A DNA stretch of 64,000 nucleotides from an uncultured Acidimicrobiia bacterium. GTDB taxonomy: Bacteria; Actinomycetota; Acidimicrobiia; Spongiisociales; JAENVV01. The translations under genes were made by a program, and so were the position numbers. Positions 28,964-63,096 of this stretch are shown here, piece after piece. Each line of letters begins with the position of its first letter. The first letter of the stretch is position 1. Below the pieces are notes generated by a model that was not told where the DNA came from, did no database searches, and was given only the letters and a program-made list of their open reading frames with translations. Where the stretch lies: positions 880,589 through 944,588 of the forward strand of contig CAVOQP010000006.1 of NCBI GenBank assembly GCA_963698385.1, written 5' to 3'.

Positions 28964-31900
28964 TCACATATTGCGGCGGTACCTTCCACCCACCGCATAC
29001 AGCGCTCCACTTATCTGCCCGATCGACGCCACCTTGGCCACATTCATGAGGGCTCCGAACGCGTTCCCTCCCAATGTCACCCTTCGCTGGAGATCCGCCA
29101 ACGCCGGGGGTGCAACGGCCGCAAACCGGGCATGGACGTCCCGGAGGTTCGCCACCTCACGGTCCTTGTCCTCGTCGGTCGAGCGGGTCACCTCCTCGGG
29201 GATGACGAACGGTGACCCGGTCGGCGATAGGAACGTGTTCACGCCGATGATCGGGTAGGCACCGCTCTCCTTCTGTCGCTCGTACTTCATCGACTCGTCC
29301 TGGATCTTCGTGCGCTGGTACTGACGTTCCATCGCACCCAGGACGCCCCCACGGCTCGTCAGGCGGTCGAATTCGGCAAGGACCGCCTCCTCGACGAGGT
29401 CGGTGAGTTCTTCGATGATGAACGAGCCTTGGAGCGGATTCTCGTTCTTGGCAAGGCCGAGCTCGCGGTTGATGATCAGCTGAATCGCCAGGGCCCGTCG
29501 CACGGACTCCTCGGTTGGGGTGGTGATTGCCTCGTCGTAGGCGTTCGTGTGGAGGCTGTTGCAGTTGTCGTAGACCGCGTACAGGGCCTGGAGCGTGGTG
29601 CGGATGTCGTTGAATCCGATCTCCTGGGCGTGGAGGGACCTTCCCGACGTCTGGATGTGGTACTTCAGCCGCTGGCTCAGCTCACCACCCTGGTAGCGGA
29701 GCCTCATCGCCTTGGCCCAGATCCTGCGGGCCACTCGACCGATGACTGCATACTCGGGGTCGATGCCGTTCGAGAAGAAGAACGACAGGCTGGGTGCGAA
29801 CGCATCAATGTGCATCCCCCGCGACAGGTAGTACTCGACGTATGTGAAGCCGTTGGCGAGGGTGAACGCCAGCTGGCTGATCGGGTTGGCGCCCGCTTCG
29901 GCCATGTGATACCCCGAGATCGAGACCGAGTAGAAGTTGCGCACCCCTTGCTCGATGAACCACTCCTGGATGTCGCCCATCATCCGCAGGCTGAACTCGG
30001 TGGAGAATATGCAGGTGTTCTGGGCCTGGTCCTCCTTGAGGATGTCGGCCTGGATGGTGCCGCGCACGGTGCGCAGGGTGTGGTCCCTGATCTCGGCGTA
30101 GGTGTCGGCAGGGAGCACCTGGTCGCCGGAGACGCCCAGAAGCATCAGGCCGAGGCCGTCGTTGCCCGGTGGGAGAGGACCGTGGTAGGTGGGACGAACC
30201 CGGTCCCCGAGGATCCCGGCGATCCTCGTCTCCACCTCCGCCTCCAAGCCATTGGTCACGATGTACTTCTCGCACTGCTGGTCGATGGCTGCGTTGAGGA
30301 AGAAGGCCAGCATGATCGGCGCGGGCCCGTTGATGGTCATCGACACCGAGGTGGCCGGGTGGCAGAGGTCGAAGCCCGAGTAGAGCTTCTTGGCGTCGTC
30401 GAGTGTCGAGACCGAGACGCCCGAGTTCCCGACCTTGCCATAGATGTCGGGCCGCTCATCGGGGTCCTCGCCATAGAGGGTGACGGAGTCGAATGCCGTG
30501 GAAAGGCGAATGGCCGGCATCCCCTCGGACAGGTAGTGGAACCGGCGATTGGTCTGCTCGGCCCCCCCTTCGCCGGCGAACATGCGGGTCGGATCCTCGC
30601 CGCGCCGCTTGTAGGGGAACACACCTGCGGTGAACGGGAACTCCCCTGGTACGTTCTCCTGCAAGAGCCACCGGAGCCGATCGCCCCATGCCCGGTAGCG
30701 GGGTAGGGCGATCTTGGGCACCTTGGTACCGGAGAGCGTCTCCACGTGGTTGTCGACCGAGATGTCGTTGCCTCGGACCCGATAGGAGTGTGACTCCCCC
30801 TCGTAGGCCCCGAGAAGCGCATCCCAGCCCTCGAGGAGGTCGGAGTTCGCAGGGTCGAGCTGACGAGTCGCCTCGCCCAACAGCCGGGAGACCTCCTCGG
30901 CAGTGGCACCCTCGAGCTCCTCGAGAATGGACTGGAGCCGATCCACCCGGTCCGCCACGCCAGCCTGCACCTCCACCCACTCGTTGTACGAACGGATGGA
31001 ATCGGAGATCTCAGACAGATACCGGGTTCGTTCCGGCGGAACGACCGCATGGGAGGAGATCTCACCATCACTGCCCCCGACGCGTGCCGACAGGTTGCTG
31101 ACTTCCGACAGGCGCTCCATGAGGTCCCTGTGGAGGGCGGTGACGCCCGCGTCGTTGAAACGGGACGCAACGACCGAATGGATCGGCAGGTCTTCATCAG
31201 GGCCGTCCCACAGCCCCCGGTTGCGGCGGTACTGCTTCCGCACATCACGAAGTGCGTCGAGCGCTCCCTGCTTGTCTGACTTGTTGATCACGACGAAGTC
31301 GGCGAAGTCGAGCATGTCGATCTTCTCGAGTTGGCTCGCCGCCCCGTACTCGGGCGTCATCACGTAGAGCGAGACGTCACAGTGGTCGACGATCTCCGTG
31401 TCCGACTGCCCGATACCCGACGTCTCGAGGATCACCAGGTCGAAACCCGCCGCCTTCACGATCGAGATCGCCGAGTGCACGGCCGGGGAGAGCGCGAGGT
31501 TTGCTTGCCGGGTAGCGAGGGAACGCATGAACACGCGCGCATCGTCGATGGCGTTCATCCTGATACGGTCGCCGAGCAGCGCCCCGCCGGTCCGCCTCCG
31601 GGACGGGTCGACAGAGATCACCGCGATGGTGATCTCCGGGTCGGCAAGGAGTGTGCGCAGGACGAGTTCGTCGACGAGCGACGACTTCCCGGCCCCTCCG
31701 GTGCCAGTGATTCCGAGGACCGGCGTCCCGGTGCCGACCGCCTTCGTGTCCACCGCGGTGAGGAACTCGAAGTGCTCCTCGGGACGGTCCTCGGCGACGG
31801 ATATCGCCCGGGCAATGGCCGCCGAGGCGCCCGGCGAGAGATCATCGAGGAGTGGGGCCCGGCTGGCGGTCCGGGCCGCGGCCGCCCGCTCGACCATGTC

Positions 31901-32335
31901 GTCAACCATCCCCTGGAGGCCCATGGTTCGGCCGTCGTCCGGTGAGTACAACCGGGCCGTGCCCTCCGTGGCGAGTGCCTCGGCCTCGAGGGGAAGGATG
32001 GTGCCTCCTCCCCCGCCGAATACCTGGATCCCGGTCCCGCCCATGTCGTCGAGTCGGGCACGCAGGTAGCGGAAGAACTCCATGTGTCCTCCCTGGTAGG
32101 AGGTGATGGCTACGCCGTCCGCATCCTCTTGGATGGCTGCGGCCGCGACCTCCTCCACGGAGCGGTTGTGGCCGAGATGGATGACCTCGGCGCCGCTCGA
32201 CTGGAGGATGCGGCGGAAGATGTTGATGGCTGCGTCATGCCCATCGAAGAGGCTGGTCGCAGTGACGAACCGGAGTCCCCGCCGGTCGGTCGGGAGGTCC
32301 ACCTGGCGTGCGACGGGATCGGAGGTCACGGTCAT
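28964..32335 (-). CDS. icmF: fused isobutyryl-CoA mutase IcmF (B12-binding domain + MeaB-like G-protein + methylmalonyl-CoA-mutase-like catalytic domain)
   Basis: N-terminal B12-binding DGHD...; GxxGxGKSS P-loop ([13 protein letters not shown]), NKSD; C-terminal mutase TIM-barrel segments; 1123 aa. Confidence 0.85.
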
Positions 32336-32925
32336 GGGCGGTCCTCCTCCAGCATGTGGATGGCGAGGTCGGCAACGCGCTCGGCCGTCGCGTCGGGATC
32401 CTCCGCGTCGGCATCGAACCATTGGTAGACCCAGTTCCCCAGCGCCAGGACGGAGTTGGCCGCGATCCGGGCGTCGAGGTCGGGACGGATCGTTCCGTTT
32501 GCCTGCCCCGCTTCGATGAGCGTTCGAACGAACCGGTCGTAGGTGCGCCGATCGCGACCGACTCGCTCGCGCCGCTCCCCCGCCAACGCCTCGAACTCCC
32601 TGAAGTACACGCCGATCTGGGCGATGTTGCGGCAGTTGTAGGCCGAGTGGTCCCTCGCGAACCATCGGAGTCGCTCCAGGTGGCTTCCCTCTCGTTCCCG
32701 GGCAAGGGAGAGTCGCTCCATGGCGGCGGCATGCACGTCATCGATGATGCCAACCAGGAGGTCCTCCTTCGAACCGATGTGGTGGTAGAGGCTGCCTTTG
32801 AGCATTCCCACCGCGTCCGCGACGTCCTGGGTGGTGGTTGCCCCGTATCCCTTTCGGAAGAAGAGATCGGCGGCGGCATCGAGGATCTGCTGGTATCGCT
32901 CGGTGGGTGGGCTGGCAACGGTCAT
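32332..32925 (-). CDS. TetR/AcrR family transcriptional regulator
   Basis: N-terminal [31 protein letters not shown]; ATGA overlap with icmF. Confidence 0.8.
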
Positions 32926-43670: not shown

Positions 43671-45698
43671 TCAGGGGGTCAGATTCCAGACGCTGTCGTC
43701 GTTGCTGGCGGACTCGTAGGGATTCGACGTCAGGGCGGTGCCGCCACCGCCGTCGATGTCGGGCAGGGTGAGCGCATTCAGCGCGGACTCGAACTGCGAC
43801 CGGGTCTTGGAATCACCCGATACGGCAAACGTGTCGCCGTTGTCGTACGACAGGCGGTACCAGGCAGTTCCTCCGCTCAGCTTCTTCACGTCGATGGTGT
43901 TGGCTCCGGTGTCAACTGCGATGATGTCGTAGTCGGCAGAGCCTCCGATCGAAGGCGCCGCCTCCACCGTGTACACCGTCAGGTTGACCACATCGCCGGC
44001 CGCGACATCGATCGAGGCGTCGTTGCCAACGTCGACCTCGGCGTCCACCGAGTCCTCACCAGGATTGGCCGCGCTGAAGCTGAAGCTGACAACACCGGAA
44101 CTGTCGGTGGTCCCGGTGGTTCCACTGGCGGCGTTGGCACCGGTGACGACCCAATTGACCACGGCGCCGCTGACGGGGGTGCCGAACTTGTCCGTGACGG
44201 TCACCGTCACAGAGTGGTTGCCACCGACGAGGCGGGACCTGGTGGACGCCGACAGAACCGCCGCATCGTCGCGAGGCAGGTCGTCATCCCAGGTGACGGT
44301 GGACGTGTCGTCGAGCTCGGCTGCGCCGTCGTCGACCCCGTCGAGATCCTTGTCCCAGAACACCGTCACATTGTCGGTCACGGCGTCATCGCCGCCTGAC
44401 GGATCCGCTGGACCGGTGTAGGTGTAGGTGGCGATGCCGGCAGAGTTGGTGAGAACTGCGGCCGTCTTCACGGTGGTCGCTCCCCGCACCACCCTGATCT
44501 GGATCGTCTGGTTGGCCAGGGGCACCGTCGCCCCGCCACCGTCGACGAACTTGATCGACAGGCCAGCCGGGGTCCCGAACTTGGCGACCACGTCGGCCGA
44601 GACGATGGCCGCCGGTGGCGGCCCCCAGACCACGTCGAGACTCGCCTTGGTGCGAACGACATCGTCGTCGAAGTTCTCCCCGGACTCACCGATCCAGGCA
44701 AAGACCTTGTCCGTCTCTTGCGTCGTGTTGTGGGTCAGGTTGACCGTGACCACGCCAGATGAGTTGGTCTTGGGATCGTTGTTGTCGATCCTGCAGTCGG
44801 TGCCGGTGCCAGGGTCGCCGTTGTTGAGTTTGGCGTCGGGGTCCACCACGCAGGTGCCGTCGGCTTTGAGCGTCCCCACGAACACGTCCACTGAGATTCC
44901 GGATGCGGCGGTTCCATTGGCGTTGCGAACCGTGACAGTCAGCACGACCGTATCGGTAGTCGAGGCAACACTGGTGCTCGCCACCATCGTGACCGTGTAT
45001 GGCTTGGCCTTGGCCGCATCGAGTTCACGAGCCAGGAAGAGAGCCATCTGGGAGCGAACCACGTCGTTGGCCGGGCTGTACTGGTTCGCACCGGTGCCCT
45101 GGGCGATCCCGAGTTGCGCGAGTTGGTTGATTGCCGTCTGGAGGTTTGCCGGGTAGGTGCCGATATCGGTGAAGCCCTGCGAGTTCCCACTGGGCAGGCC
45201 GAAGCCGGCCCTGGCATGGAGGCGGGTCAGGAACAGCGCCATCTGCAACCGACTGACGGTGGTCGCGGGCGAGTACTGGGTCGCCGTCGTGCCCTTGGTG
45301 ATGCCCAGCTGTGCCAGTTGGTTGATCGCCTTCTGCGCCTCGGCCGACAGACCGCCGAGATCGGTGAAACCCTGACTGACCCCGTCGGGCAGGACGATGC
45401 CGATGTCTTCGGCGGTCCTGATCAGGAACAGCGCCATCTGCACGCGCGTGACCGACTGGCTCGGGCTGAACTTGGTGGCAGAGGTCCCCTGGGCGATCCC
45501 ATAGAAACGGATGCAGTCGATGGCATCGACCGCATCTCTACTCAACCCGCCGAGGTCGTTGAAACCCGAGGCGGGGATGCTGGTTGGACACGCCTCGGAT
45601 GTGAGGGCGTGAGCCGCCGGGGCGGCGATGAGTGTCATCAACATGCTGAACGCGGCGACGGCAACGAGCCGTCGCGAGAACCACGAACGAGCCAACAT
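43671..45698 (-). CDS. surface-layer homology (SLH) domain protein with three N-terminal SLH repeats and C-terminal Ig-like/adhesin-like region
   Basis: signal peptide; three about 55-aa repeats F[NT]D[LI]G...AI[ND]QLAQLGI[TA][KQ]GT...[QY][YF]SP...V[ST]R.QMALFL.R. Confidence 0.8.
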   Translation of the reverse strand: MLARSWFSRRLVAVAAFSMLMTLIAAPAAHALTSEACPTSIPASGFNDLGGLSRDAVDAIDCIRFYGIAQGTSATKFSPSQSVTRVQMALFLIRTAEDIGIVLPDGVSQGFTDLGGLSAEAQKAINQLAQLGITKGTTATQYSPATTVSRLQMALFLTRLHARAGFGLPSGNSQGFTDIGTYPANLQTAINQLAQLGIAQGTGANQYSPANDVVRSQMALFLARELDAAKAKPYTVTMVASTSVASTTDTVVLTVTVRNANGTAASGISVDVFVGTLKADGTCVVDPDAKLNNGDPGTGTDCRIDNNDPKTNSSGVVTVNLTHNTTQETDKVFAWIGESGENFDDDVVRTKASLDVVWGPPPAAIVSADVVAKFGTPAGLSIKFVDGGGATVPLANQTIQIRVVRGATTVKTAAVLTNSAGIATYTYTGPADPSGGDDAVTDNVTVFWDKDLDGVDDGAAELDDTSTVTWDDDLPRDDAAVLSASTRSRLVGGNHSVTVTVTDKFGTPVSGAVVNWVVTGANAASGTTGTTDSSGVVSFSFSAANPGEDSVDAEVDVGNDASIDVAAGDVVNLTVYTVEAAPSIGGSADYDIIAVDTGANTIDVKKLSGGTAWYRLSYDNGDTFAVSGDSKTRSQFESALNALTLPDIDGGGGTALTSNPYESASNDDSVWNLTP

Positions 45699-48617: not shown

Positions 48618-49250
48618 ATGCTCGTCTCCGTGGAGGATCTCGTCGTCGTTCGCGGTGACACACCGGTCCTGCAGGGCGTCTCCCTCTCGCTCGGGCCGGG
48701 CGAATCGCTTGGGATCGCCGGCCACAACGGCTCGGGCAAGACCACACTCCTGAGGGTCCTGGCCACCCTGCTGCGACCGACATCCGGCATCGTGCAGATC
48801 CTCGGGAAGGACGCGACAGACAAGGATGCGCGACTGGTTCGACCACGGATCGGGATGGTCGGCCATGTCCCGGCCCTGTCGCCGCACCTCACACTCGGCG
48901 AGAACCTCCGTTTCGCGGCGACCCTCGGTGGGATCGATACCGCGTTCGTGCCGGAAGCGCTGGCCATGGTGGGTCTCGGACGAGCAGGTGATCGACTCGC
49001 CGGGAAGGCATCCCAGGGGATGGGTCGGCGGGCGGACCTCGCCCGCATCGTCCTCACCCAGCCGACGCTTCTCCTCCTCGACGAGCCATTCGCCGGCCTC
49101 GACGCCCACGCCACCGGGATCATCGGGGCCATCATCGAGCGCACCGTCGCCCGCGGCGGCGCCGTGGTGGTGGTGTCGCACGAGCCCGCCCGGGCCGCGA
49201 CGGTGGTCGATCGCACCATCACGCTGGAGAACGGGAGGTTGGTCCCATGA
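48618..49250 (+). CDS. ccmA: heme exporter ATP-binding protein CcmA
   Basis: Walker A GHNGSGKTT, Walker B LLLLDEPFAGLD; first gene of ccm cluster. Confidence 0.8.
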   Translation: MLVSVEDLVVVRGDTPVLQGVSLSLGPGESLGIAGHNGSGKTTLLRVLATLLRPTSGIVQILGKDATDKDARLVRPRIGMVGHVPALSPHLTLGENLRFAATLGGIDTAFVPEALAMVGLGRAGDRLAGKASQGMGRRADLARIVLTQPTLLLLDEPFAGLDAHATGIIGAIIERTVARGGAVVVVSHEPARAATVVDRTITLENGRLVP

Positions 49251-49915
49251 CGTTCTGGCGTCAGGCCTTCGCCATCACCCGTCGCGACCTCCTCGCCGAA
49301 GGACGAGCCGGGGACGTGCTGTGGATCGTCATCCCCTACGGGGCGCTCGCCGTCTTCCTCTCCCCCATCGCCCTCAATTCGTCGAGGGCGATCCTCAGCG
49401 AGATCGGGCTCGGGCTCAACTGGCTCATCGTCCTGCTCTTTGGCATGTTCGTGACCTTCCGCCGCTCCGCCCAGGCAACCGCGGCTGAGTCGGACATGCT
49501 GGCGCTCATGCTCGGCGACCCGGCGTCGTCCTTCCTCGGACGAACCGTGTCCTCGACGGCCCTCCTCCTTGCATTCCAACTCGTCATGACGCCCCTGACC
49601 ATGGGGCTCTTCTCCCCCGCACCACCGCGCTCATGGGCTGCGTACGCGGGTGTGGCGGCACTTGCCGCACTTGGACTCGGCATGATCGGGACCATCGCCG
49701 GGTCGCTCGTGGCGGGGACCGGGGCGGGGACCGCCCTCGCCCCGCTGCTCACCGGGGCGCTCAGCTTCCCGCTGCTCGTGGGCGCGGCCATCTCCACCGA
49801 CCGGTTGACCGGGGGCGACAGTATCCTCGCCCCCGTCGCACTCCTTGCCCTCGTGGACGTCGCAGTCCTCACGGCCGGGGTGTTGACCTCCCGCCCGCTC
49901 GAGGAGACAGCGTGA
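49247..49915 (+). CDS. ccmB: heme exporter permease CcmB
   Basis: ATGA overlap with ccmA; six TM helices; position in ccm locus. Confidence 0.75.
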   Translation: MTFWRQAFAITRRDLLAEGRAGDVLWIVIPYGALAVFLSPIALNSSRAILSEIGLGLNWLIVLLFGMFVTFRRSAQATAAESDMLALMLGDPASSFLGRTVSSTALLLAFQLVMTPLTMGLFSPAPPRSWAAYAGVAALAALGLGMIGTIAGSLVAGTGAGTALAPLLTGALSFPLLVGAAISTDRLTGGDSILAPVALLALVDVAVLTAGVLTSRPLEETA

Positions 49916-50625
49916 AGCTTGCGCAACGAATCCTGACGGTCCTCGCCCTTGCGGCGATCATCACGGGTCTCGTCCTTGCCATGAACACCGAGCCCGACGC
50001 AGTGCAGGGCGAGTTCGCCCGCGTGTTCCACGTGCACGTCCCATCCGCCTGGCTGGCATTCCTGGCCTTCGGGGTGACACTGCTGGGCTCGATCGGGTGG
50101 CTGATCTGGCGGAAACCCGCGGCCGACCACCTGGCCGCCGCCTCGGCTGAGATCGGGGTCTTCTTCACCGGCCTCGCGCTCGTCACCGGCATGATCTGGG
50201 GATACCCCGTGTGGGGCGTCGCCTGGGACTGGGGAGACGCTCGGCTGGTCTCCACCGCGGTGATGTTCTTCGTCTATGTCGGTTACCTCGCCCTCCGGAG
50301 AGCGATCCCCGACCCGGTCGTACGCGCCACCCGCTCGGCGGTGCTCGGATCCCTCGCCTTCCTGCTGGTGCCTGCCGTCTACTTCTCGGTCGAGATCTTC
50401 CGGACGCTGCATCAGGGCATGACGATCACCCCCCAGGGCGCGTCGATGAGTTCTGAGATGCTGGTCGCCTTCCTCGTCAACCTCATGGCGTTCACGATCC
50501 TCTACCTGGCGTTCCTCGTCAGCCGCACCCGCCTGGCATTCGCCCAGGCGGAGGCCGCGGCGAGTCGACCGGTGTCGGGGCTGGGCGACGTCGAACCTCC
50601 CGACCTGGGGGCCATCCGTGGCTGA
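49912..50625 (+). CDS. ccmC: heme exporter protein CcmC
   Basis: GTG start overlapping ccmB stop; W-rich motif VWGVAWDWGDARL (WxWD-type heme-handling motif); conserved His residues. Confidence 0.8.
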   Translation: MKLAQRILTVLALAAIITGLVLAMNTEPDAVQGEFARVFHVHVPSAWLAFLAFGVTLLGSIGWLIWRKPAADHLAAASAEIGVFFTGLALVTGMIWGYPVWGVAWDWGDARLVSTAVMFFVYVGYLALRRAIPDPVVRATRSAVLGSLAFLLVPAVYFSVEIFRTLHQGMTITPQGASMSSEMLVAFLVNLMAFTILYLAFLVSRTRLAFAQAEAAASRPVSGLGDVEPPDLGAIRG

Positions 50626-50719
50626 GGGTTGGGTCACGTTTGCCTACGTCGTCGTATACGGCTTCATCGTCGGGTATGGCGTCTCGTTGGCGGTTCGCTG
50701 GCGGAGGCTCCGCAAGTGA
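50618..50719 (+). CDS. ccmD: heme exporter protein CcmD-like small membrane protein (33 aa; not in ORF track)
   Basis: VAEGWVTFAYVVVYGFIVGYGVSLAVRWRRLRK: single TM helix followed by basic tail, GTG start overlapping ccmC end, GTGA overlap with ccmE start. Confidence 0.6.
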   Translation: MAEGWVTFAYVVVYGFIVGYGVSLAVRWRRLRK

Positions 50720-51144
50720 CACAGCCGGACCGACCCGGGCCTGCCGCGGGCCGGCGCCTCTTCGTCGTCGGGGCCGTGCTGGCCATCGTCGCGCTCGCCG
50801 CCGTGCTCCTCAACCAACTCTTGGCAGAGAACTCCGTCCTCTACCTCGAGCCGCGGGAGGCCCTCGACCAACGAGATGAACTCCCCGATGGTGAGGCATT
50901 CCGACTCGGCGGGTGGATCGTCCCCGGCAGCCTGTCAGATGGTGGCGGAACACTCACCTTCGAGGTGACCGACTTCGCCGAGGTGATCCCGGTTCGCACC
51001 GGGGCCACTCCACCCCAACTGTTCGGAGAGGACATCCCGGTCCTGCTCGACGGCGCCTTCGAGGGCGACACTTTCGTGGCCACCGGGATCATCCTTCGTC
51101 ACGAGGAGAACTACCAGCCGCCGGAGGACGAGGCAGACGAATGA
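50716..51144 (+). CDS. ccmE: cytochrome c-type biogenesis heme chaperone CcmE
   Basis: N-terminal TM then LRHEENYQPP-like C-terminus; FRLGGWIVPGSL...GTLTFEVTD OB-fold region; position in locus. Confidence 0.75.
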   Translation: MTQPDRPGPAAGRRLFVVGAVLAIVALAAVLLNQLLAENSVLYLEPREALDQRDELPDGEAFRLGGWIVPGSLSDGGGTLTFEVTDFAEVIPVRTGATPPQLFGEDIPVLLDGAFEGDTFVATGIILRHEENYQPPEDEADE

Positions 51145-53135
51145 TCGCCCTCATCGGCCTCCTCGGGGTGCTGGCGGGGGTAGTCGGTGGGCTCTGGCTG
51201 GCCACTGCGGCGTTCTCCTCGGCCCGGGAAGCAACCCCGGACCTCCGCCGTCCGGTCGGGTTCCTCCTCTCGGGAGCGATCATCTCGATGCTCGCGCTCG
51301 TCGCCGGCCTCCTCACCGATGACTTCTCCATCGCCTACGTGGCCAACCACAGCGCCGCCTCGACGCCGTTTGTCTTCAAGGTGGCCTCGGCGTGGGGGGC
51401 CCTTGAAGGGTCGATCGTCCTGTGGGGCCTCGTGCTCGCGACAGCGGTGTGGTGGTCGCTGCGATCCCGACGCGACGCCCTCGACCGACTCGACGTCCTC
51501 GCGCTGGGAGTCATGGGGGTCGTAGCGGTCTTCTTCTTCGGGCTCATGGCGACCGTCGCCAATCCATTCGAGGTCTGCACGATCCCGGCGAGCATCGGAT
51601 GTGCGGACTCGTCGTGGTGGCCGTTCGTCGCGGGTAGCGCACCCGCCCAGGGCCGCGGCCCCAATCCGCTCCTTCAGAACCACATCCTCATGGCCATCCA
51701 TCCCCCGATGCTGTACCTCGGGTACGTCGGACTCACCGCCCCATTCAGCTACGCCATTGCCGCCCTGCTCGTCGGCACCCCCGGCGTGGCGTGGGTGACC
51801 CGCACCCGTCGCCTCACGCTGCTGGCCTGGGCCTTCCTGACGATCGGCATCCTCCTCGGTGCATGGTGGTCGTACGAGGTGCTCGGCTGGGGCGGCTACT
51901 GGGGATGGGACCCCGTGGAGAACGCATCGCTGCTTCCCTGGATCACCGCGACGGCCTTCCTCCACTCCTCGGCCGTCCAGGTCCGGCGGGGAGCGCTCCA
52001 GGCCTGGAACTTCGTCCTCGTGATCGCGTCGTTCGCCCTCACCATCCTCGGTACGTTCCTCACGCGATCCGGGGTGATCACCTCGGTTCACTCCTTCACC
52101 CAATCGGCCATCAGTCCACTCCTGCTCGGGTTTTTCGTGGTGGTGATCGTCGGCGGCCTCGGCCTCTTCGCCCTTCGCTCGCACCTCGTGGCCACACCCG
52201 GCACGGTCGACGAGCCGATCAGCCGAGCAGGAGGCCTCCTCGTCAACAACATCCTGCTCTCGGCATGGGCGGTCACGGTGCTGATCGGAACCGTGTACCC
52301 GATCCTCGTGGAAGCCTTTGCCACCCGGACCGTGGGCGTTGGACGAGGCTTCTTCGACGCCACCACGATCCCCCTCGCCTTCACGTTGCTCCTTGTGATG
52401 GGATTCGGCGAGGTCGCCCCATGGAAGAAGGCCGCGTGGTCGACGGTCCGGGGCCGGATGGCGCTCCCAGCCCAGGTCGCGCTCGGGGTGGGAGCCGGGG
52501 CGGTCCTCCTCGGTGTTCGCTCCCGAGGAGCCCTGACGGCCATCACCTTGGCCGTCTTCGTGGCTGTCCCACCCATCAAGGAACTCGTACGCCTCACACG
52601 GACCCGGGCCGGGAAGGGGACGCCGGCGCTCGCCGCCCTGCTCGGCATCGTGCGCCGCGACCGGGGGTATTGGGGCGGCATGCTCTCCCATCTGGGGATT
52701 GCCGTCATCGTGATCGGGATTGCCGGCTCCGGGGGTTTGGCCACGACCCACCGGGAGGTCGAACTGCCCCGAAACGAGACGGTCGTCGTCGGCGACTACT
52801 CGCTCTCCTTCACCGGCGGATTCACGACGACCGAGCCACAACGAACCGTCACCGGGGCAACCATCGAACTACGCCGGGACGGCGACCTGGTCACGCTCCT
52901 GCGGCCGACGATCAACGACTACCGGGTGCAGGCCGTCCCAACACCCGCCGTCGACACCTCGATCACCCGGGATGTCTATGTCTCTCTGCGCTCCATCGAT
53001 GGCAGTCGAGCCATCGTCGACATGCACGTCTTCCCACTCCAATGGATGGTCTGGGTTGGCGGCTTCCTGGTGGCGTCCGGCGGTTTCTGGGCGCTGTCGA
53101 GCCGCACCCGGGAGCGTGAGGTCGCACGGGCATGA
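51141..53135 (+). CDS. ccmF: cytochrome c-type biogenesis protein CcmF (heme lyase)
   Basis: 664 aa polytopic; W-rich motif LGWGGYWGWDPVENASLLPW; conserved His. Confidence 0.85.
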   Translation: MIALIGLLGVLAGVVGGLWLATAAFSSAREATPDLRRPVGFLLSGAIISMLALVAGLLTDDFSIAYVANHSAASTPFVFKVASAWGALEGSIVLWGLVLATAVWWSLRSRRDALDRLDVLALGVMGVVAVFFFGLMATVANPFEVCTIPASIGCADSSWWPFVAGSAPAQGRGPNPLLQNHILMAIHPPMLYLGYVGLTAPFSYAIAALLVGTPGVAWVTRTRRLTLLAWAFLTIGILLGAWWSYEVLGWGGYWGWDPVENASLLPWITATAFLHSSAVQVRRGALQAWNFVLVIASFALTILGTFLTRSGVITSVHSFTQSAISPLLLGFFVVVIVGGLGLFALRSHLVATPGTVDEPISRAGGLLVNNILLSAWAVTVLIGTVYPILVEAFATRTVGVGRGFFDATTIPLAFTLLLVMGFGEVAPWKKAAWSTVRGRMALPAQVALGVGAGAVLLGVRSRGALTAITLAVFVAVPPIKELVRLTRTRAGKGTPALAALLGIVRRDRGYWGGMLSHLGIAVIVIGIAGSGGLATTHREVELPRNETVVVGDYSLSFTGGFTTTEPQRTVTGATIELRRDGDLVTLLRPTINDYRVQAVPTPAVDTSITRDVYVSLRSIDGSRAIVDMHVFPLQWMVWVGGFLVASGGFWALSSRTREREVARA

Positions 53136-54109
53136 CCGCCCGTCGCCTCGCCAGTTGGACATTCACCGTCGTCGCCGCCGGGATCCTGCTGTGGGGGATG
53201 ATCGCCGTCCAGGGTGGTGACATCGACCCGCTCGCCATCGGGGACAAGATCGCCTGCCCGAAGTGCGAGGGCGAGTCGATCGCCGCGTCCCAGACGCAGA
53301 CCGCCCGGGCGATGATGGTCATCGTCGAGGAGCGCATCGCCGAGGGACTGTCCGAGCGTGAGATCCTCGACTGGTTCGCAGCCCGGTACGGGCCTGACAT
53401 CGTCCTCGAGCCCCCGCTCGACCTCGGAGGGTTGGCGCTGTGGGCGATCCCCATGGTCGTGGTGGCGGGCGGGGCGATTGTCGCCGTCCGCTCCTCGAAG
53501 GGACGGCAAGAGGAACCAGACTCCGCACCCTCCGGGCGTCGTAGCCTCGTGGTGCTTGGCGTGGCCGCGCTGGTCCTGACCGGCCTCGCGTTCGGTATCG
53601 GGCAGTTCGTTCAACCCCGAGCCGCCGGCTCGGCGGTGAGCGGGAACCTCGAGGTGGGCACCAGCACCGACCTCGACGGTGTGAGCAATGCCGAGATGGA
53701 GGAATTGCTCCAGCAGTTCGCCGGGATCCCGGAGGCCAACCGAATGCGCCTCGCGCTTGCGCGGAGGTACTTCGAGGAAACGAACTACTCGAAAGCCGTC
53801 GAGCACTTCCAACTCGTCCTCGGCAACGACCCAACGCCATTGGAGGCGAGTGAGGCACTCGGCCGGATCGGCTGGATCCTCTTCGCCAACGGCGAGCTCG
53901 CGGCGGCGGAATCGGCCTATGTCCAAGCGCTCGACGCCCTGCCCGGGAACGGAGAGGCGAAGTGGTTCTACGCCATCCTCCTGGTCGATTCCGACCGCGG
54001 CCCGGAGGCCGTGCCCCTCCTGGAGGAGCTCCTGGCGGACGAGACCGTTCCGCCGGAGATCATGACGGAGATCGAAGTCCTTCTCGACCAGGCCAAGGTG
54101 GGCACGTGA
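53132..54109 (+). CDS. ccmH: cytochrome c-type biogenesis protein CcmH (CxxC) with C-terminal TPR (CcmI-like) domain
   Basis: CPKCEGES redox motif after N-terminal TM; second TM; TPR-like C-terminus. Confidence 0.75.
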   Translation: MTARRLASWTFTVVAAGILLWGMIAVQGGDIDPLAIGDKIACPKCEGESIAASQTQTARAMMVIVEERIAEGLSEREILDWFAARYGPDIVLEPPLDLGGLALWAIPMVVVAGGAIVAVRSSKGRQEEPDSAPSGRRSLVVLGVAALVLTGLAFGIGQFVQPRAAGSAVSGNLEVGTSTDLDGVSNAEMEELLQQFAGIPEANRMRLALARRYFEETNYSKAVEHFQLVLGNDPTPLEASEALGRIGWILFANGELAAAESAYVQALDALPGNGEAKWFYAILLVDSDRGPEAVPLLEELLADETVPPEIMTEIEVLLDQAKVGT

Positions 54110-54675
54110 AGCGTTGGCCCACATGGGTGGCGATCGGCGTGATCGTCGTATTCGCCGGGTTCATGGCTGGACGCCTTGGCCTCGGCGAGTCCATCCCCGA
54201 GTCGCCGCTCATCGGCTCCCCCGTCACCGACATGGAACTCCCACTCCTCGAGGAGGAAGGCAGCATCCGACTCACCGACTACGCGGGGAAGATCGTCGTC
54301 GCCAACTTCTGGGCCTCGTGGTGCACCCCGTGTCGTGAGGAGCATCCGGCGTTCGTGGCAGCAGCCGACCTCTACGCCGGTGAAGGCGTCCAGTTCGTGG
54401 CCATCAACCATGAGGACCCGGGCGACGCCGGCAGCCGCTTCCTGGACGCATACGGCCGAAGCATCCACCAGGTGGTCGTGAGGGACGAGGGCAGCCGGGC
54501 GGGGATCGAGTTCGGTGTATTCGGCCTCCCGGAGACCTTCTTCATCGATGGCAAGGGAATCATCGTCGGTCGGGTCGCGGGGGCGATCGACCTGCCGATT
54601 CTCATCGACTTCATCACCCAGATCCAGGCGGGCGACGCCCCCGGGGAGCTGGACGGCATCGTTTACCGGCCGTAG
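54106..54675 (+). CDS. ccmG: thiol:disulfide oxidoreductase CcmG/DsbE (TlpA family)
   Basis: WASWCTPCREEHP active site; GTGA overlap with ccmH. Confidence 0.8.
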   Translation: MKRWPTWVAIGVIVVFAGFMAGRLGLGESIPESPLIGSPVTDMELPLLEEEGSIRLTDYAGKIVVANFWASWCTPCREEHPAFVAAADLYAGEGVQFVAINHEDPGDAGSRFLDAYGRSIHQVVVRDEGSRAGIEFGVFGLPETFFIDGKGIIVGRVAGAIDLPILIDFITQIQAGDAPGELDGIVYRP

Positions 54676-55864: not shown

Positions 55865-56572
55865 TCACGCCAACCGGTGCTCCTGCAGGAACGGGAGGTC
55901 TGCGACGATCTCCCCGATATCGCCGTCCCGGACGACGCGGCCACGGTCCAGCACGATCGCCCGAGTACACAGCGCGTGGGCAAGGTCGAGGTGATGGGTG
56001 ACGAGGAGGAGTGCCTCCGGGAGGTCTGCCAGGAGGTGTGTGAGCTCACGTCGACCGGCGGGGTCGAGGCCTGATGAGGGTTCGTCCATGATGAGGAGCC
56101 GGGGCCGCATCGCCAGGACGCCGGCGATCGCCACCCTCCGTCGCTCACCTGCTGAGAGGTGGTGGGGAGCTCGTCCCGCGAGGTGGGCAGCCCCGACCCT
56201 GGCCAGGTTCTCTCGAACCACTTCGACCAGCTCCTCCCCTGTCACCCCGTAGTTGGCGGGTCCGAAGGCCACATCGTCTCGCACAGTGGGCATGAAAAGC
56301 TGATCGTTGGGGTCCTGGAAGACCAGCCCGACATGGCGACGAAGCTCGAACGCCGAATCCGCGGTGAGCTTCTCATCGACGATCTCGACGGTGCCGGCGG
56401 TGGGAAGGACAACCCCCATCAACGCCAACACGAGTGTCGTCTTGCCGGCGCCATTCGGTCCGAGGAGCGCCACCCGCTCGCCCTCTTCGATCGAGAACCC
56501 GACGTCCACCAGCGCCACCTCACCGCCCGGGAATGTGTGCCCAACCCGCTCGACTGACACGAGCCTGCTCAC
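55865..56572 (-). CDS. ECF transporter ATP-binding protein (CbiO/NikO/EcfA)
   Basis: Walker A GPNGAGKTT, signature LSAGERRRV, Walker B LLIMDEPSSGLD; GTGA overlap with Q-component. Confidence 0.8.
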   Translation of the reverse strand: MSRLVSVERVGHTFPGGEVALVDVGFSIEEGERVALLGPNGAGKTTLVLALMGVVLPTAGTVEIVDEKLTADSAFELRRHVGLVFQDPNDQLFMPTVRDDVAFGPANYGVTGEELVEVVRENLARVGAAHLAGRAPHHLSAGERRRVAIAGVLAMRPRLLIMDEPSSGLDPAGRRELTHLLADLPEALLLVTHHLDLAHALCTRAIVLDRGRVVRDGDIGEIVADLPFLQEHRLA

Positions 56573-57330
56573 AGCGCCACCGCCACGGCCGCGGCAAGCA
56601 CCGCCACCGACGGAAGGGCCAGACCGGCCCCCCAGTCGCCGAGTGATGCGGTCGCCCCGAACGGCGTCGGCATGACGCCTCGGTAGCCGCGGACCACCAT
56701 TGCAGCATGGATCCGCTCGCCACGTTCGAAGGCCCGGACCAGCATCGTGCCGACGAGCATCGCGAGTACCCGCACCGCACCCAGCCCGGTCGCCCGATAG
56801 CCGCGGACGGCGGCGGCAGTACGCATCCGTCCGAACTCGCCTGCGAGGACATCGAGGTAGCGGATCATGAACCCGGCGATCGCCACCAGGACGGCCGGCA
56901 GCTTGAGGCGGCTGAGCCCGGCAAGGATGTCGGGCACCTCGGTGGTGGCGGCCAGCACGACGGAGGCCCCAGTGCCCAGGGAGGCCCTGGCCAGGATCGA
57001 CCACGCCGACCACAGGCCCTCCCCGCTGAGCGCCACACCGAGGACGGCGACCCGGGGGTCGGGACCGACGAATGGCAGGAACGCGGCGAAGAGCACGAAT
57101 GGGACCTCCACCACCATCCGCCGGACAACGAAGCCCACGGCCAGTTCGGAGCGGGCAATGACGAACGCCAGGACGACCGCGTGAAGCCCAAAGGCCCAGA
57201 CGGCCGCCCTGGGTGTGGCGACAACAGCAGCAAGGAACAGGAGGAGCGCAGCCACTTTGACATGCGGGGCGAGGCCGTGGGCCCGACTGTGGCCGTGGAC
57301 GTAGAGAGCATGGGTGTGGAGACCGCTCAT
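56569..57330 (-). CDS. ECF transporter transmembrane component CbiQ/NikQ
   Basis: polytopic membrane protein between M/N and O components; ATGA overlaps both sides. Confidence 0.65.
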   Translation of the reverse strand: MSGLHTHALYVHGHSRAHGLAPHVKVAALLLFLAAVVATPRAAVWAFGLHAVVLAFVIARSELAVGFVVRRMVVEVPFVLFAAFLPFVGPDPRVAVLGVALSGEGLWSAWSILARASLGTGASVVLAATTEVPDILAGLSRLKLPAVLVAIAGFMIRYLDVLAGEFGRMRTAAAVRGYRATGLGAVRVLAMLVGTMLVRAFERGERIHAAMVVRGYRGVMPTPFGATASLGDWGAGLALPSVAVLAAAVAVAL

Positions 57331-58286
57331 CGGCCGGCCGGCCGACGGAGGAGTCGAGTGAGGCCCCACAAGAGCATCCCGGCGACGACTGCACCAACAA
57401 TGCCGGCCACCCCGACGGCCACGACATTGCTTTCGAGCCCGGGGAGTGCGTACCCCGCGAGTGGGCTATCGGACAATTGATGGTCCAGCGCTGCCTCGTC
57501 GAATCCGAGTTGGATGGCGACCCGCTGCAACCCGTCGGGTGACGACGCCGCGAATGGCGCCACCCCAAGCGCCAGCACCCCCACGAGGACGGCTCCCGCC
57601 ACGACAGCGCCCCGGTTGGTGGTCGACGGCTGGCCGTCCAGGCCACCGACCCCGACCGCGACATCCGGGCGAACCCGCATGAGGGCTCCGACGATCAAGG
57701 CACTGATGAGTCCCTCGCCGACCCCGATGACAAGGTGGACGGAGGTCATGGCCGCCAGTACGGATCCAAGGGGTGCTCCCCCTTGCCCTCCCAACGCGTA
57801 CTCGATGGAGAAGGCGACCGCTGATGCCACCACCGAAGCCAACCCCGCGAGGAACACCGCGACGGTCACGGCCCAGCGGCGGTCCGGGGTGACAGACCGA
57901 ACGAGCCGAAACACCGCCCAGCCGACCAGGACGGTGACGACGGCCATGTTGAGCAGGTTCGACCCCAGGGCCGAGATCCCACCGTCGGCGAACACGAGTG
58001 CCTGCACTCCGACCACGACGGTGAGCACGAGGACACCCAGCCACGGGCCGAGGAGGACTGCAGCGAGCGCCCCTCCCAGGAGGTGCCCCGAGGTGCCGAA
58101 GGCAACGGGGAAGTTGAGCATCTGTAGGACGAAGATCATCGCGGCCGAGATGCCGGCCAGCGGGATCCGCCGGTCAGTGGAGAGTGATCGCCCTGACTGA
58201 CGGAGCGCAGCTCCGATGCCCCCCGCCGCCACGAGACCCGTGCCGATCGAGGTGGTCGCGTTCAGGAATCCATCCGGTATGTGCAC
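57327..58286 (-). CDS. fused Ni/Co ECF transporter substrate-capture components CbiM-CbiN (NikMN-like)
   Basis: N-terminal MHIPDGFL metal-binding hallmark; about 320 aa with additional C-terminal TM pair consistent with fused N component. Confidence 0.8.
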   Translation of the reverse strand: MHIPDGFLNATTSIGTGLVAAGGIGAALRQSGRSLSTDRRIPLAGISAAMIFVLQMLNFPVAFGTSGHLLGGALAAVLLGPWLGVLVLTVVVGVQALVFADGGISALGSNLLNMAVVTVLVGWAVFRLVRSVTPDRRWAVTVAVFLAGLASVVASAVAFSIEYALGGQGGAPLGSVLAAMTSVHLVIGVGEGLISALIVGALMRVRPDVAVGVGGLDGQPSTTNRGAVVAGAVLVGVLALGVAPFAASSPDGLQRVAIQLGFDEAALDHQLSDSPLAGYALPGLESNVVAVGVAGIVGAVVAGMLLWGLTRLLRRPAGR

Positions 58287-59047: not shown

Positions 59048-59482
59048 CTAAACGGCCTCGCCGAGCGAGCAGGCGGCGCAGGTACCGACGAGGGCGAAGT
59101 GGAGGGTGTCGGCGGCGAAGCCGTGGCGATCGGCCACCGGGGACAGGGCACTGAGGACCTCGGCTGCTGGGATATCCACGACGACACCACACACGCGGCA
59201 GCTGAGGTGGTGATGCGGCTCCTCGGTGAGATGGACAACCGTCGTCCCTTGGCCAGTGTGCACGTGCTCGACGAGCCCGAGTCCCTGGAGAACCTCGATT
59301 GTCCGGTAGACGGTCGATGCATCGATCCGGCCCCCGGTGAGTGCCTCGGCGCCGGCCTTCAGCTCGACGGCTGAATGGTGGCGGTCCGGTCCGGAGGCGA
59401 GCACTTCGCACAGCGCCGTCCGGGCGGCGGTGATCCGCATCCCCTCTGCCCGAAGGGCGTCGAGGAGGAGGTCTGCGTTCAA
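59048..59482 (-). CDS. Fur family metalloregulator (Nur/Zur/PerR-like)
   Basis: RITAARTALCEVL DNA-binding helix, HHH..C and CxxC metal sites (HLTEEPHHHLSCRVCG, CAAC). Confidence 0.8.
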   Translation of the reverse strand: MNADLLLDALRAEGMRITAARTALCEVLASGPDRHHSAVELKAGAEALTGGRIDASTVYRTIEVLQGLGLVEHVHTGQGTTVVHLTEEPHHHLSCRVCGVVVDIPAAEVLSALSPVADRHGFAADTLHFALVGTCAACSLGEAV

Positions 59483-60498
59483 CCCTTGAGCTCCGCGGAG
59501 CGGACGAGCACCCGGTCGAGCGTCTCGGCGGCGGCCCCGGAATCGATGGTCTCCCTGGCAACCCGCACTCCGTCGACGAACCCCGCGGCCAGGCCGGCCA
59601 CCACGAGGGGGGCCGACGCGTTGATGAGGACGATGTCCCGCCGGGGTCCCCGCTCCCCCTCGAGCACCGACCGGAGGATCCCGGCGTTCGTCTCCGCGTC
59701 GCCACCGAGGACATCCTCGATGGAGCCCCGGTCCACCCCGAAGTCCTCTGGTGTGAACTCGGCCACCGTGATCTCCCCCTCGCGAAGCCGATAGATGAAC
59801 GACGGCGCTGCTATCGAGAGCTCGTCGAGTCCGTCCTCGCCGTAGTAGACGAAGGCGTTGGCAGCCCCGAGGTTGCGGAGGACGTTGATCATTTTCTCGG
59901 CCATGGCGCTGTCGGAGACGCCAATGGCCAGGTTCGTGGCCCCTGCGGGGTTGGTGAGGGGGCCGAGGAAGTTGAAGACGGTCGGGATACCGAGTTCCTT
60001 GCGGACGGGTACGGCATGGCGCATGGACGGGTGGTACGCCGGCGCGAACAGGAAACCGAACCCGGTCTCCTCGATCAACTGTGCGGTCGTCTCCGGGTCG
60101 AGGTCGAGTGGGTATCCGAGCGCTTCGAGCACGTCGGCGGCACCTGACTTCGAGGAGGCCGAGCGGTTCCCGTGCTTTGCGACCCGCCCCCCGGCTGCTG
60201 CGACGACGAAGGCACTGGTCGTGGAGATGTTGAACGTGCCGGATCGATCGCCACCGGTCCCGACCACGTCAACGAGGGGGCCGGGGACCGGGCACTTCAC
60301 CGAGGCTTCGCGCATTGCCTCGACGAGACCGGTCAGTTCGTCAACCGTCTCGCCTTTCATCCGCAAGGCCACGATGAGGGCAGCTGTCTGGGAAGGGGTT
60401 GCTTCGCCGGCCATGACGACCTGCATCGCCTTGCGTGCCTCGCTCCGTGTGATGTCTGCTCCCGAGGCGAGCTTGCCGAGTGTCTTGGCCCAGTCCAC
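59479..60498 (-). CDS. trpD: anthranilate phosphoribosyltransferase
   Basis: GTGGD motif (VDVVGTGGDRSGTFNIST), KHGNRS, conserved N-terminal ALRMKGET; GTG start with ggag RBS; ATGA overlap with fur. Confidence 0.85.
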   Translation of the reverse strand: MDWAKTLGKLASGADITRSEARKAMQVVMAGEATPSQTAALIVALRMKGETVDELTGLVEAMREASVKCPVPGPLVDVVGTGGDRSGTFNISTTSAFVVAAAGGRVAKHGNRSASSKSGAADVLEALGYPLDLDPETTAQLIEETGFGFLFAPAYHPSMRHAVPVRKELGIPTVFNFLGPLTNPAGATNLAIGVSDSAMAEKMINVLRNLGAANAFVYYGEDGLDELSIAAPSFIYRLREGEITVAEFTPEDFGVDRGSIEDVLGGDAETNAGILRSVLEGERGPRRDIVLINASAPLVVAGLAAGFVDGVRVARETIDSGAAAETLDRVLVRSAELKG

Positions 60499-60638
60499 TG
60501 AGTCTCCAGATCCGTGTTCGAGCCGCGATGGTAGAGCGTCCCAGAAGAGAGCGGCAGGACGAGCAGCCGCTGCCAGCACGCAGTGAACACACCGTCCACC
60601 CTGAATAGACTTGAAGCGACGCCGAGGAGACCACCCAC

Positions 60639-61103
60639 ATGACCGCCAGAGATGTGTATTACTTCGCGTACTCCTCACTGCTGTCACCCGAGGTGCTCTC
60701 GAGGGTCGCACCGAAGGCTTCCTTTCTGCTGACGGCACATCTTCCCGAGACGAAACTCCTCTTCCGGGACCCGGGCATGCGGTGGGAAGGGGCGATACCA
60801 ACCGTGATCGCCGAGGAGGGAAACACGGTGTGGGGGGCGCTCTTCCATGTCACGAAGGACGAACTGGCCGCCATCGATGCCGAGGAAGCCGCGAATGGTC
60901 GAGTACCAACCGAGAGCTTCTCGGCGGTTGATCGTGAGGGGAAGCGCTACTGGGTGGTCACCCACATCGTCGAGGTTGGCCCGGAGGCGGCCCCCGACCT
61001 CACGTACATCGAGCACATGGTCACCGGGGGAACCCACTGGCGTCTCCCGACCGGCTGGGTTCTCAACCTCGAGGACTACCTCGAGGAGGACCTGCTCGCA
61101 TGA
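60639..61103 (+). CDS. gamma-glutamylcyclotransferase-like (AIG2/GGACT family) protein
   Basis: N-terminal YYFAYSSLL matches YGSNL-type GGCT motif; about 150 aa. Confidence 0.6.
   Translation: MTARDVYYFAYSSLLSPEVLSRVAPKASFLLTAHLPETKLLFRDPGMRWEGAIPTVIAEEGNTVWGALFHVTKDELAAIDAEEAANGRVPTESFSAVDREGKRYWVVTHIVEVGPEAAPDLTYIEHMVTGGTHWRLPTGWVLNLEDYLEEDLLA

Positions 61104-62717: not shown

Positions 62718-63096
<379 letters not shown>

Follow-up and report, generated by a model that had tools for sequence, protein, structure and literature searches.

Eight contiguous genes, ccmA, ccmB, ccmC, ccmD, ccmE, ccmF, ccmH, and ccmG, lie at positions 48618–54675 on the plus strand of the window, the whole 64-kb stretch of DNA that we analyzed. 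The first two encode a predicted ABC ATPase of the heme-release complex (ccmA, 48618–49250, 210 aa) and an ABC permease (ccmB, 49247–49915, 222 aa). They are followed by ccmC (49912–50625, 237 aa), whose product is predicted to present heme via its WWD domain, by a GTG-initiated ORF of 33 codons plus a TGA stop, designated ccmD (50618–50719), encoding one predicted transmembrane helix and the basic tail RWRRLRK, and by ccmE (50716–51144, 142 aa), for a putative membrane-anchored heme chaperone. The remaining genes encode a predicted heme lyase subunit (ccmF, 51141–53135, 664 aa), a CcmH protein with a C-terminal TPR domain (ccmH, 53132–54109, 325 aa), and a predicted membrane-anchored thioredoxin-like reductase of the DsbE/ResA type (ccmG, 54106–54675, 189 aa). 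Like ccmD, the genes ccmC, ccmE, and ccmG start with GTG. Six of the seven junctions are 4-nt ATGA or GTGA overlaps, among them ccmA/ccmB (ATGA) and ccmD/ccmE, and the ccmC/ccmD overlap spans 8 nt (50618–50625). The sequence-only reading had described every junction as overlapping by 1–4 nt or using a GTG start; six do overlap by 4 nt, and ccmC/ccmD exceeds that range. Its account of a complete eight-gene System I locus stands, both for the ORFs and for their family assignments, as does the small peptide that it quoted, whose ORF overlaps the end of ccmC and the GTG start of ccmE. CcmC, CcmE, CcmF, and CcmH, with the starts given here, exactly match genes called on the public source contig of 1.34 Mb. 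A scan inside the locus for promoter-like sites (both strands) and terminator-like sites (plus strand) gave no match; the eight genes are probably co-transcribed.

The proteins were assigned by profile searches and by alignment with their Escherichia coli counterparts. CcmA is recognized by TIGR01189 (151.1 bits vs. a cutoff of 131.6) and by PF00005, and shares 36% identity with E. coli CcmA. CcmB matches PF03379 (43.1 bits, cutoff 24.9). CcmC matches PF01578 with 88 bits and scores 155.7 bits with TIGR01191, under the cutoff of 186. Aligned with the E. coli protein, it retains an intact WWD motif, WGYPVWGVAWDWGDARL, and its His ligands, found in the segments HVHVP and TLHQG, correspond to H60 and H184. 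In CcmE (PF03100, 63.3 bits), the segment RHEENYQPPE is the aligned counterpart of KHDENYTPPE in E. coli, which contains H130-x3-Y134 of the HxxxY heme-binding motif. A CcmE chaperone bearing HxxxY is the hallmark of System I. CcmF matches PF16327 (210 bits) and PF01578 (108 bits). Its WWD motif, GWGGYWGWDPVENAS, aligns with that of E. coli CcmF, and the His residues in IHPP, FLHS, SVHSF, and LSHLG correspond by alignment to H173, H261, H303, and H491, respectively. It also has an insertion of about 17 aa that includes two Cys and is specific to its clade. CcmH matches PF03918 (77 bits), and the CxxC motif CPKC aligns with LRCPKC of E. coli. The TPR tail announced from the sequence proved correct: the TPR_16, TPR_19, and TPR_2 families match residues 207–304, in a fusion of the CcmH–CcmI type. 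CcmG scores 92.7 bits with TIGR00385 (dsbE), under the cutoff of 123, and also matches AhpC-TSA and Redoxin; its segments WCTPC and GVFGLPETF align with WCPTC and GVYGAPETF of E. coli. Every E. coli catalytic residue that we checked is conserved in the Ccm proteins of the window.

The phylogenetic context of the locus was examined with CcmF and with the housekeeping protein TrpD encoded in the window, whose matches are all from Acidimicrobiia and place the genome in this class. In a crude neighbor-joining tree, CcmF belongs to a clade of about 20–21 genomes at species level. Almost every one bears the label Acidimicrobiia, Actinomycetota, or Actinomycetes, although several labels of metagenome-assembled genomes (MAGs) are inconsistent (L003 is labelled "Acidobacteriota" and L004 "Gemmatimonadales"). 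This clade splits into two subclades, and the order A-B-C-D-E-F-H-G is the same across its genomes that carry the window-type locus. CcmF is 50–62% identical to its homologues in GTDB species representatives, and CcmE 74–83% identical to those of the closest metagenomic contigs. TrpD is 59% identical to its homologues in L009 and L007, a value close to that of the ccm genes. Flanking genes are partly syntenic among relatives: the downstream flank (cbiM, an ECF ATPase gene, and trpD) is shared with L009 and L007, and the upstream amino-acid dehydrogenase gene is also present in L118.

The sequence-only reading had suggested that the locus might be a lateral acquisition or mark an unusual lineage, full System I loci being uncommon in actinobacteria. 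A recent transfer into an actinobacterial genome otherwise using System II would agree with the use of ResB/ResC by Corynebacterium and other textbook Actinomycetota (PMC9145763), with the absence of Actinomycetota from the list of System I-encoding classes in the supplement of a 2025 survey (PMC12077264), and with the nearest relatives of CcmF outside its own clade, which come from other phyla at about 36–42% identity. However, the locus is indistinguishable from the rest of the window in GC content (0.677 vs. 0.668 ± 0.018) and in GC3 (0.851 vs. 0.830 ± 0.020), and its codon-usage distance (0.318) is close to the mean of the other 6-kb blocks (0.330). Moreover, its neighbors in the window are core genes (trpD, his genes, and the RNase P RNA), and the flank synteny with other Acidimicrobiia genomes, the single, nearly all-actinobacterial CcmF clade, and the comparable divergence of TrpD also argue against recent arrival, which we consider very unlikely. 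The CcmF clade, the partial flank synteny, and the matching composition therefore indicate long-standing inheritance of the locus rather than a recent transfer. The ancestor of Acidimicrobiia may have received the locus by an ancient transfer. The supposed rarity fails at the level of the class, because the locus is typical for the clade of this organism. The description as an unusual lineage is right in a loose sense, since System II, not System I, is what has been described for classical Actinomycetes, whereas within the class the locus is ordinary.

On the evidence of its sequence, we identify the 33-codon ORF as a real CcmD gene, as the first reading had proposed. In its frame GC3 reaches 0.83, against 0.45 and 0.55 in the two others. 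Of 72 loci, at least 68 have a positional homologue behind ccmC, and at all 48 related loci with ccmC then ccmE, a small ORF encoding one helix and a basic tail occupies the same site. Four close relatives (L118–L121) retain exactly 33 codons, the GTG start, and the TGA stop, with about as many synonymous-only codon changes as amino-acid-changing ones. The window CcmD and its Acidimicrobiia relatives have the motif EGWVxFAYxVVYGF in common. Using the protein as a query, phmmer retrieved six small proteins at E ≤ 1e-3 from 1.84 billion searched, and a family profile retrieved 267, some of which carry PF04995 and bear the name "heme exporter protein CcmD [Acidimicrobiales bacterium]". Among 21 positional homologues, eight match TIGR04391, eight TIGR03141, and six PF04995 at about 1e-4. 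Finally, hhalign aligned the window CcmD subfamily with PF04995-positive Acidimicrobiia proteins over 34 columns (96.2% probability, E = 2e-9).

The search with CcmD profiles recommended by the sequence-only reading gave a divided answer. Taken alone, the window CcmD has no Pfam match and falls under every curated CcmD cutoff (PF04995, TIGR03141, and TIGR04391), its sole direct profile match being to TIGR04391 (E = 0.28, 11.2 bits vs. a cutoff of 24), while the profile of its subfamily is homologous to the PF04995-positive proteins. The closest subfamily members are likewise sub-threshold for the curated profiles. For a protein so short and evolving so fast, such a cutoff serves as an operational threshold and does not define CcmD biologically. 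A profile search against PDB chains gave only chance matches, and with the E. coli CcmD sequence alone as target hhalign detected no similarity (1.4% probability); these comparisons are uninformative either way, because E. coli CcmD is too divergent.

Could the ORF be a chance frame in the short spacer between ccmC and ccmE, the true start of ccmE lying upstream, at TTG 50629? Its very small size and poor profile matches fit this idea, as do the weak Shine–Dalgarno-like sequence upstream (ctggggg) and the fact that the gene caller of the source contig skipped it. The upstream TTG start was nevertheless rejected on GC3, which is only 0.45 in the ccmE-frame extension, and on the public gene call, a 142-aa CcmE starting at GTG 50716. 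In addition, the CcmE alignments of relatives start within residues 5–57 of the 142-aa protein, and therefore no relative supports a longer N-terminus. Together with the positional conservation of the small ORF, its preserved length in the four close relatives despite many synonymous changes, and the homology found by hhalign, these data leave a chance ORF most improbable, and we regard it as effectively refuted. The gene was fairly called overlooked, since the public annotation of the source contig has no call for the 33-aa sequence; it is also uncalled in L118 and L119, and called in L120 and L121.

In the CcmD encoded by this ORF, a hydrophobic segment extends over 22 residues, and the tail has a net charge of +5. 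The minimal protein would thus consist of about four residues outside the membrane, the transmembrane helix WVTFAYVVVYGFIVGYGVSLAV, and a seven-residue basic tail. According to the positive-inside rule, this tail would give the protein an N-out/C-in orientation, the one reported for E. coli CcmD (PMC12077264).

By analogy with E. coli, CcmC and the one-helix CcmD would take up heme and present it on the outer face in the WWD domain, and CcmE would bind it covalently via the His of HxxxY. CcmA2B2 would dock on CcmCD, and ATP hydrolysis would lead to the release of holo-CcmE. Heme would be attached to CxxCH sites by CcmF and CcmH, the latter with its presumed apocytochrome-binding TPR tail fused here, and the CxxCH cysteines would be kept reduced by CcmG and CcmH. 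No coding frame of the 64-kb window contains CxxCH, so that a gene for a c-type cytochrome was not found there, and we detected no member of the CcdA/DsbD family among the window ORFs scanned. The best NCBIfam names of CcmF and CcmH include the NrfE and NrfF models (TIGR03145, 362.7 bits for CcmF; TIGR03147, 52.1 bits for CcmH), from which one might read that CcmF, CcmH, and CcmG are not a general holocytochrome c synthase but an NrfEFG-type lyase dedicated to a special CXXCK heme site. We reject this extremely unlikely reading because the scores are far under the cutoffs set for Nrf, 927 and 159 bits; the location of the three genes in one operon with ccmABCDE and the lack of an nrfA-like gene and of a second ccmF in the window also oppose it. 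We retain, with strong confidence, the view that the eight genes form one operon for a complete System I pathway with a minimal CcmD, long inherited within Acidimicrobiia.

As a complete System I operon, the locus is ordinary and leaves the understanding of the System I mechanism unchanged. What is mildly notable is that System I looks usual for an actinobacterial class without an entry in the 2025 survey (PMC12077264). In the literature searched, we came across no relevant work on ccm genes or on the maturation or biogenesis of cytochrome c in Acidimicrobiia or Acidimicrobiales. The present data document a complete, conserved System I in Acidimicrobiia. A broader and decidedly tentative proposal, to which we give somewhat less than even weight, is that Acidimicrobiia as a whole use System I as their usual route, in place of the System II described for Actinomycetes, and in a clade-specific version with a minimal CcmD of 33–37 aa almost devoid of a cytoplasmic domain, a periplasmic insertion in CcmF whose Cys pair is conserved, and a CcmH–TPR fusion. 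If so, the minimal CcmD, a transmembrane helix with a short basic anchor, would define the part of the protein that is really needed, and the distribution would revise the phylum-level view of cytochrome c maturation systems in "Gram-positive" bacteria. The finding that CcmD can shrink to 33 residues, approximately one helix and a basic anchor, bears on the requirements of the CcmABCD complex. In practice, the public gene calls of this genome and of L118 and L119 need correction, as they omit a real gene of 33 aa.

Compared with known systems, the locus has the same eight functions as E. coli ccmABCDEFGH and similar overlapping stop/start junctions, with protein identities of 27–37% and conservation of all the catalytic residues checked. 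The fusion of CcmH to a TPR (CcmI-like) domain is also found in E. coli. The two loci differ in gene order, F-H-G in the window and F-G-H in E. coli, and in the two-Cys insertion of CcmF, a feature of the window clade unlike E. coli. A further difference concerns CcmD: the window protein is 33 aa long, compared with 69 aa in E. coli, whose CcmABCD structure is available (PDB 7F04; PMC12077264), and almost none of the C-terminal cytoplasmic part is left in it; no pairwise or profile similarity is detectable between the two. It is also shorter than the CcmD proteins of a 44-organism survey, which range from 37 to 100 aa (PMC12077264). The short CcmD families TIGR04391 (CcmD_alt_fam, a 36-position model) and PF04995/TIGR03141 comprise small single-helix proteins that end in a basic tail and whose genes directly follow ccmC, as in the window, and the window CcmD subfamily gives consistent sub-threshold matches to these three models. 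Within the class, the order is F-G-H in a second Acidimicrobiia subclade, whose CcmD ends in PPEDRRWM. The loci of other Acidimicrobiia MAGs (for example L001, L008, and L009, and the close relatives L118–L121) are identical to that of the window in content and in order, A-B-C-D-E-F-H-G, share its 8-nt ccmC/ccmD overlap, and differ from it by sequence divergence only.

The ORF list and the window sequence place eight genes head-to-tail on the forward strand at 48618-54675: ccmA (48618-49250, ATG start), ccmB (49247-49915, ATG), ccmC (49912-50625, GTG), a small ORF of 33 codons plus a TGA stop (50618-50719, GTG), ccmE (50716-51144, GTG), ccmF (51141-53135, ATG), ccmH (53132-54109, ATG), and ccmG (54106-54675, GTG). 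All junctions overlap, as the sequence-only reading had claimed, but not always by the 1-4 nt it gave: six are 4-nt ATGA or GTGA overlaps, and the ccmC/small-ORF overlap is 8 nt. Such coupling is usual in ccm operons, the Escherichia coli operon having overlapping junctions of the same kind. Scanned for promoter-like sites on both strands and for terminator-like sites on the forward strand, the locus yielded none. CcmC, CcmE, CcmF, and CcmH correspond exactly, including their start codons, to genes already called on a 1,343,564-bp public contig, which supports the gene boundaries.

The seven large genes were assigned to families with Pfam and NCBIfam. CcmA exceeds the cutoff of TIGR01189, CcmB matches PF03379, CcmC PF01578 and TIGR01191, CcmE PF03100, CcmF PF16327 and PF01578, and CcmH PF03918, followed by TPR repeats; CcmG is a DsbE/ResA-type thioredoxin. 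When aligned with their annotated counterparts from E. coli K-12 (27-37% identity), the encoded proteins show all functional residues checked: the WWD domain and both His ligands of CcmC, the H-x3-Y of CcmE (as RHEENY), the WWD domain and four His of CcmF, the CPKC of CcmH, and the WCTPC and GVFGLPETF of CcmG. Together, the ORF list, the family matches, and these residues confirm the proposed eight-gene System I locus. The CcmF subclade of the window, including L001-L009 among the relatives' loci, carries an insertion of ~17 aa (window ~51576-51635, residues ~146-165) in the periplasmic loop directly ahead of the NPLLQNH..HPP (P-His1) segment. Missing from a second Acidimicrobiia subclade, other phyla, and E. 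coli, it holds two conserved cysteines (NPFxVC-x7-C-xxSSWxP) that might form a disulfide with a structural role close to the heme site.

The 33-codon ORF behaves as a coding sequence. In the stretch that separates the ccmC stop from the ccmE start, its frame has a GC3 of 0.83, equal to the coding GC3 of the genome (0.83); the ccmE frame has 0.45 and the third frame 0.55. As GC3 is high only in the small-ORF frame, a TTG start for ccmE further upstream is excluded. We collected comparison loci via CcmF from species-representative genomes and via CcmC from metagenomes. As the sequence-only reading would predict, all 48 loci where ccmE follows ccmC have, between the two genes, a small ORF for a single hydrophobic helix with a basic tail; of the 72 loci whose ccmC 3' end is complete, at least 68 have such an ORF directly 3' of ccmC. 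Most close relatives likewise start this ORF at -7, counted from the final base of the ccmC stop codon (an 8-nt overlap); the start codon there is ATG, that of the window GTG. On the contigs of the four closest relatives (L118-L121, CcmE 74-83% identical), the ORF has in each case exactly 33 codons, a GTG start, and a TGA stop; its N-terminal two thirds are almost invariant (V[A/T]EGWVVFAYxVVYGFIxGYAVSL), and its tail is variable yet basic throughout. Synonymous-only and amino-acid-changing codon changes are about equal among close relatives (e.g., 8 vs 5, 11 vs 9), a level of synonymous change above that expected of unconstrained sequence, albeit in a small sample. Public gene callers do not agree on this gene: called in L120 (GCA_041637055.1, 1827-1928) and L121 (862-963), it was missed in L118 (2403-2504), L119 (2296-2397), and the source contig of the window, where it had indeed been overlooked.

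With the window peptide alone as query, six small proteins (35-55 aa) came up at E<=1e-3 in a set of 1.84 billion representatives. Neither it nor its closest subfamily members reach the curated CcmD thresholds (window peptide against TIGR04391: E=0.28, 11.2 bits, cutoff 24), and the window peptide has no Pfam match. Among 21 positional homologues, eight match TIGR04391, eight TIGR03141, and six PF04995, with best E-values near 1e-4 and no recurring unrelated family. Among 5.8 billion, their profile found 267 small proteins with E<=0.01; some of these are PF04995-positive and bear the names "heme exporter protein CcmD [Acidimicrobiales bacterium]" or "CcmD family protein". For the window peptide's subfamily, profile-profile comparison with nine PF04995-positive proteins yielded a match (96.2% probability, E=2e-9, 34 columns). 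Neither E. coli CcmD by itself nor PDB chains gave a match, in line with a report that CcmD is very poorly conserved among System I organisms (PMC12077264). On the basis of coding frame, positional conservation, close relatives, and homology to recognized CcmD, we file the small ORF as a divergent, minimal CcmD. The gene assignments and this interpretation are supported; the missed gene is a modest annotation point. In the second Acidimicrobiia subclade, CcmD ends in a conserved cytoplasmic motif, PPEDRRWM (L012, L014, L020, L027, P0010, P0011, P0028, P0043, P0048), which the window's subfamily does not have.

The locus had been considered uncommon for Actinomycetota and perhaps laterally acquired. 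Classical Actinomycetes do use ResB/ResC (PMC9145763), and no class of Actinomycetota is among those listed as encoding System I in a 2025 survey (PMC12077264), but the claim is not supported for the class of this organism. The same 1.34-Mb contig encodes a 100% match to the housekeeping protein TrpD (59479-60801, reverse strand), all of whose named relatives are "Acidimicrobiia bacterium". The best CcmF relatives in species-representative genomes (50-62% identity) are labelled mostly Acidimicrobiia, followed by other phyla at ~36-42%. A crude NJ tree of CcmF places the window in a clade of ~21 genomes with two subclades, apart from Acidobacteriota and Chloroflexota and labelled nearly throughout Acidimicrobiia, Actinomycetota, or Actinomycetes, a few MAG labels being inconsistent. 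The order A-B-C-D-E-F-H-G is common to the window's subclade, the other having F-G-H. Downstream, cbiM, a fused ECF ATPase gene, and trpD are syntenic with loci L009 and L007, and their 48-59% identity resembles that of the ccm genes; upstream, an amino-acid dehydrogenase is retained in L118. The locus resembles the rest of the window in GC (0.677 vs 0.668 +/- 0.018), GC3 (0.851 vs 0.830 +/- 0.020), and codon-usage distance (0.318 vs a mean of 0.330 for other 6-kb blocks, 15 of 30 blocks being at least as distant). Taxonomy, CcmF relatives and tree, gene order, synteny, and composition thus give no support to a recent lateral acquisition. The ancestor of the class may have received the locus by an ancient transfer. 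The locus is typical for its clade, and System I is apparently the norm in Acidimicrobiia; in the literature collection searched, we found no paper discussing ccm in this class. In the CcmF tree, some MAGs fall where their labels would not put them: L003 ("Acidobacteriota") is sister to an Acidimicrobiia MAG, L004 ("Gemmatimonadales") falls inside the Acidimicrobiia clade, and L018 ("Acidimicrobiia") and L051 ("Actinomycetota") lie among Acidobacteriota. Wrong labels, contaminated bins, or separate transfers could explain this.

Within the 64-kb window, no CxxCH motif occurs in a coding frame, and the ORFs scanned include no ResB, CcsA, or CcdA/DsbD family member. A bacterial class A RNase P RNA (62728-63092, forward strand, 277.6 bits) confirms a core chromosomal context. 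Cobalt/ECF-type transporter genes lie on the reverse strand at 55865-57664 and 57327-58286. The 599-aa protein has an ECF ATPase domain at residues ~369-598 only, and its unassigned N-terminal ~360 aa may be a fused CbiQ-like part; its gene adjoins the CbiM-like gene. As listed, both ORFs overlap, so their starts are tentative. Also on the reverse strand are genes for a 675-aa protein with S-layer homology (SLH) and Big_1 Ig-like domains (43671-45698), probably a cell-surface protein, and for a 1233-aa fusion of B12-binding, MeaB GTPase, and methylmalonyl-CoA mutase domains (28964-32665), an architecture that, judged from its domains, is IcmF-like.

By analogy with work on E. coli (PMC12077264, PMC12285233), CcmC and CcmD would take heme and keep it in the WWD domain, and the CcmE histidine would attach it covalently. 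CcmA2B2 would dock through CcmD, ATP hydrolysis releasing holo-CcmE, and CcmF/CcmH would join heme to CxxCH sites whose thiols are held reduced by CcmG and CcmH. The window CcmD has ~4 residues ahead of its helix and a 7-residue tail with a net charge of +5; the positive-inside rule predicts an N-out/C-in orientation, as in E. coli CcmD. Its length of 33 aa falls below the 37-100 aa of CcmD in a survey of 44 organisms (PMC12077264), so the essential part of CcmD may be the helix plus a short basic anchor.
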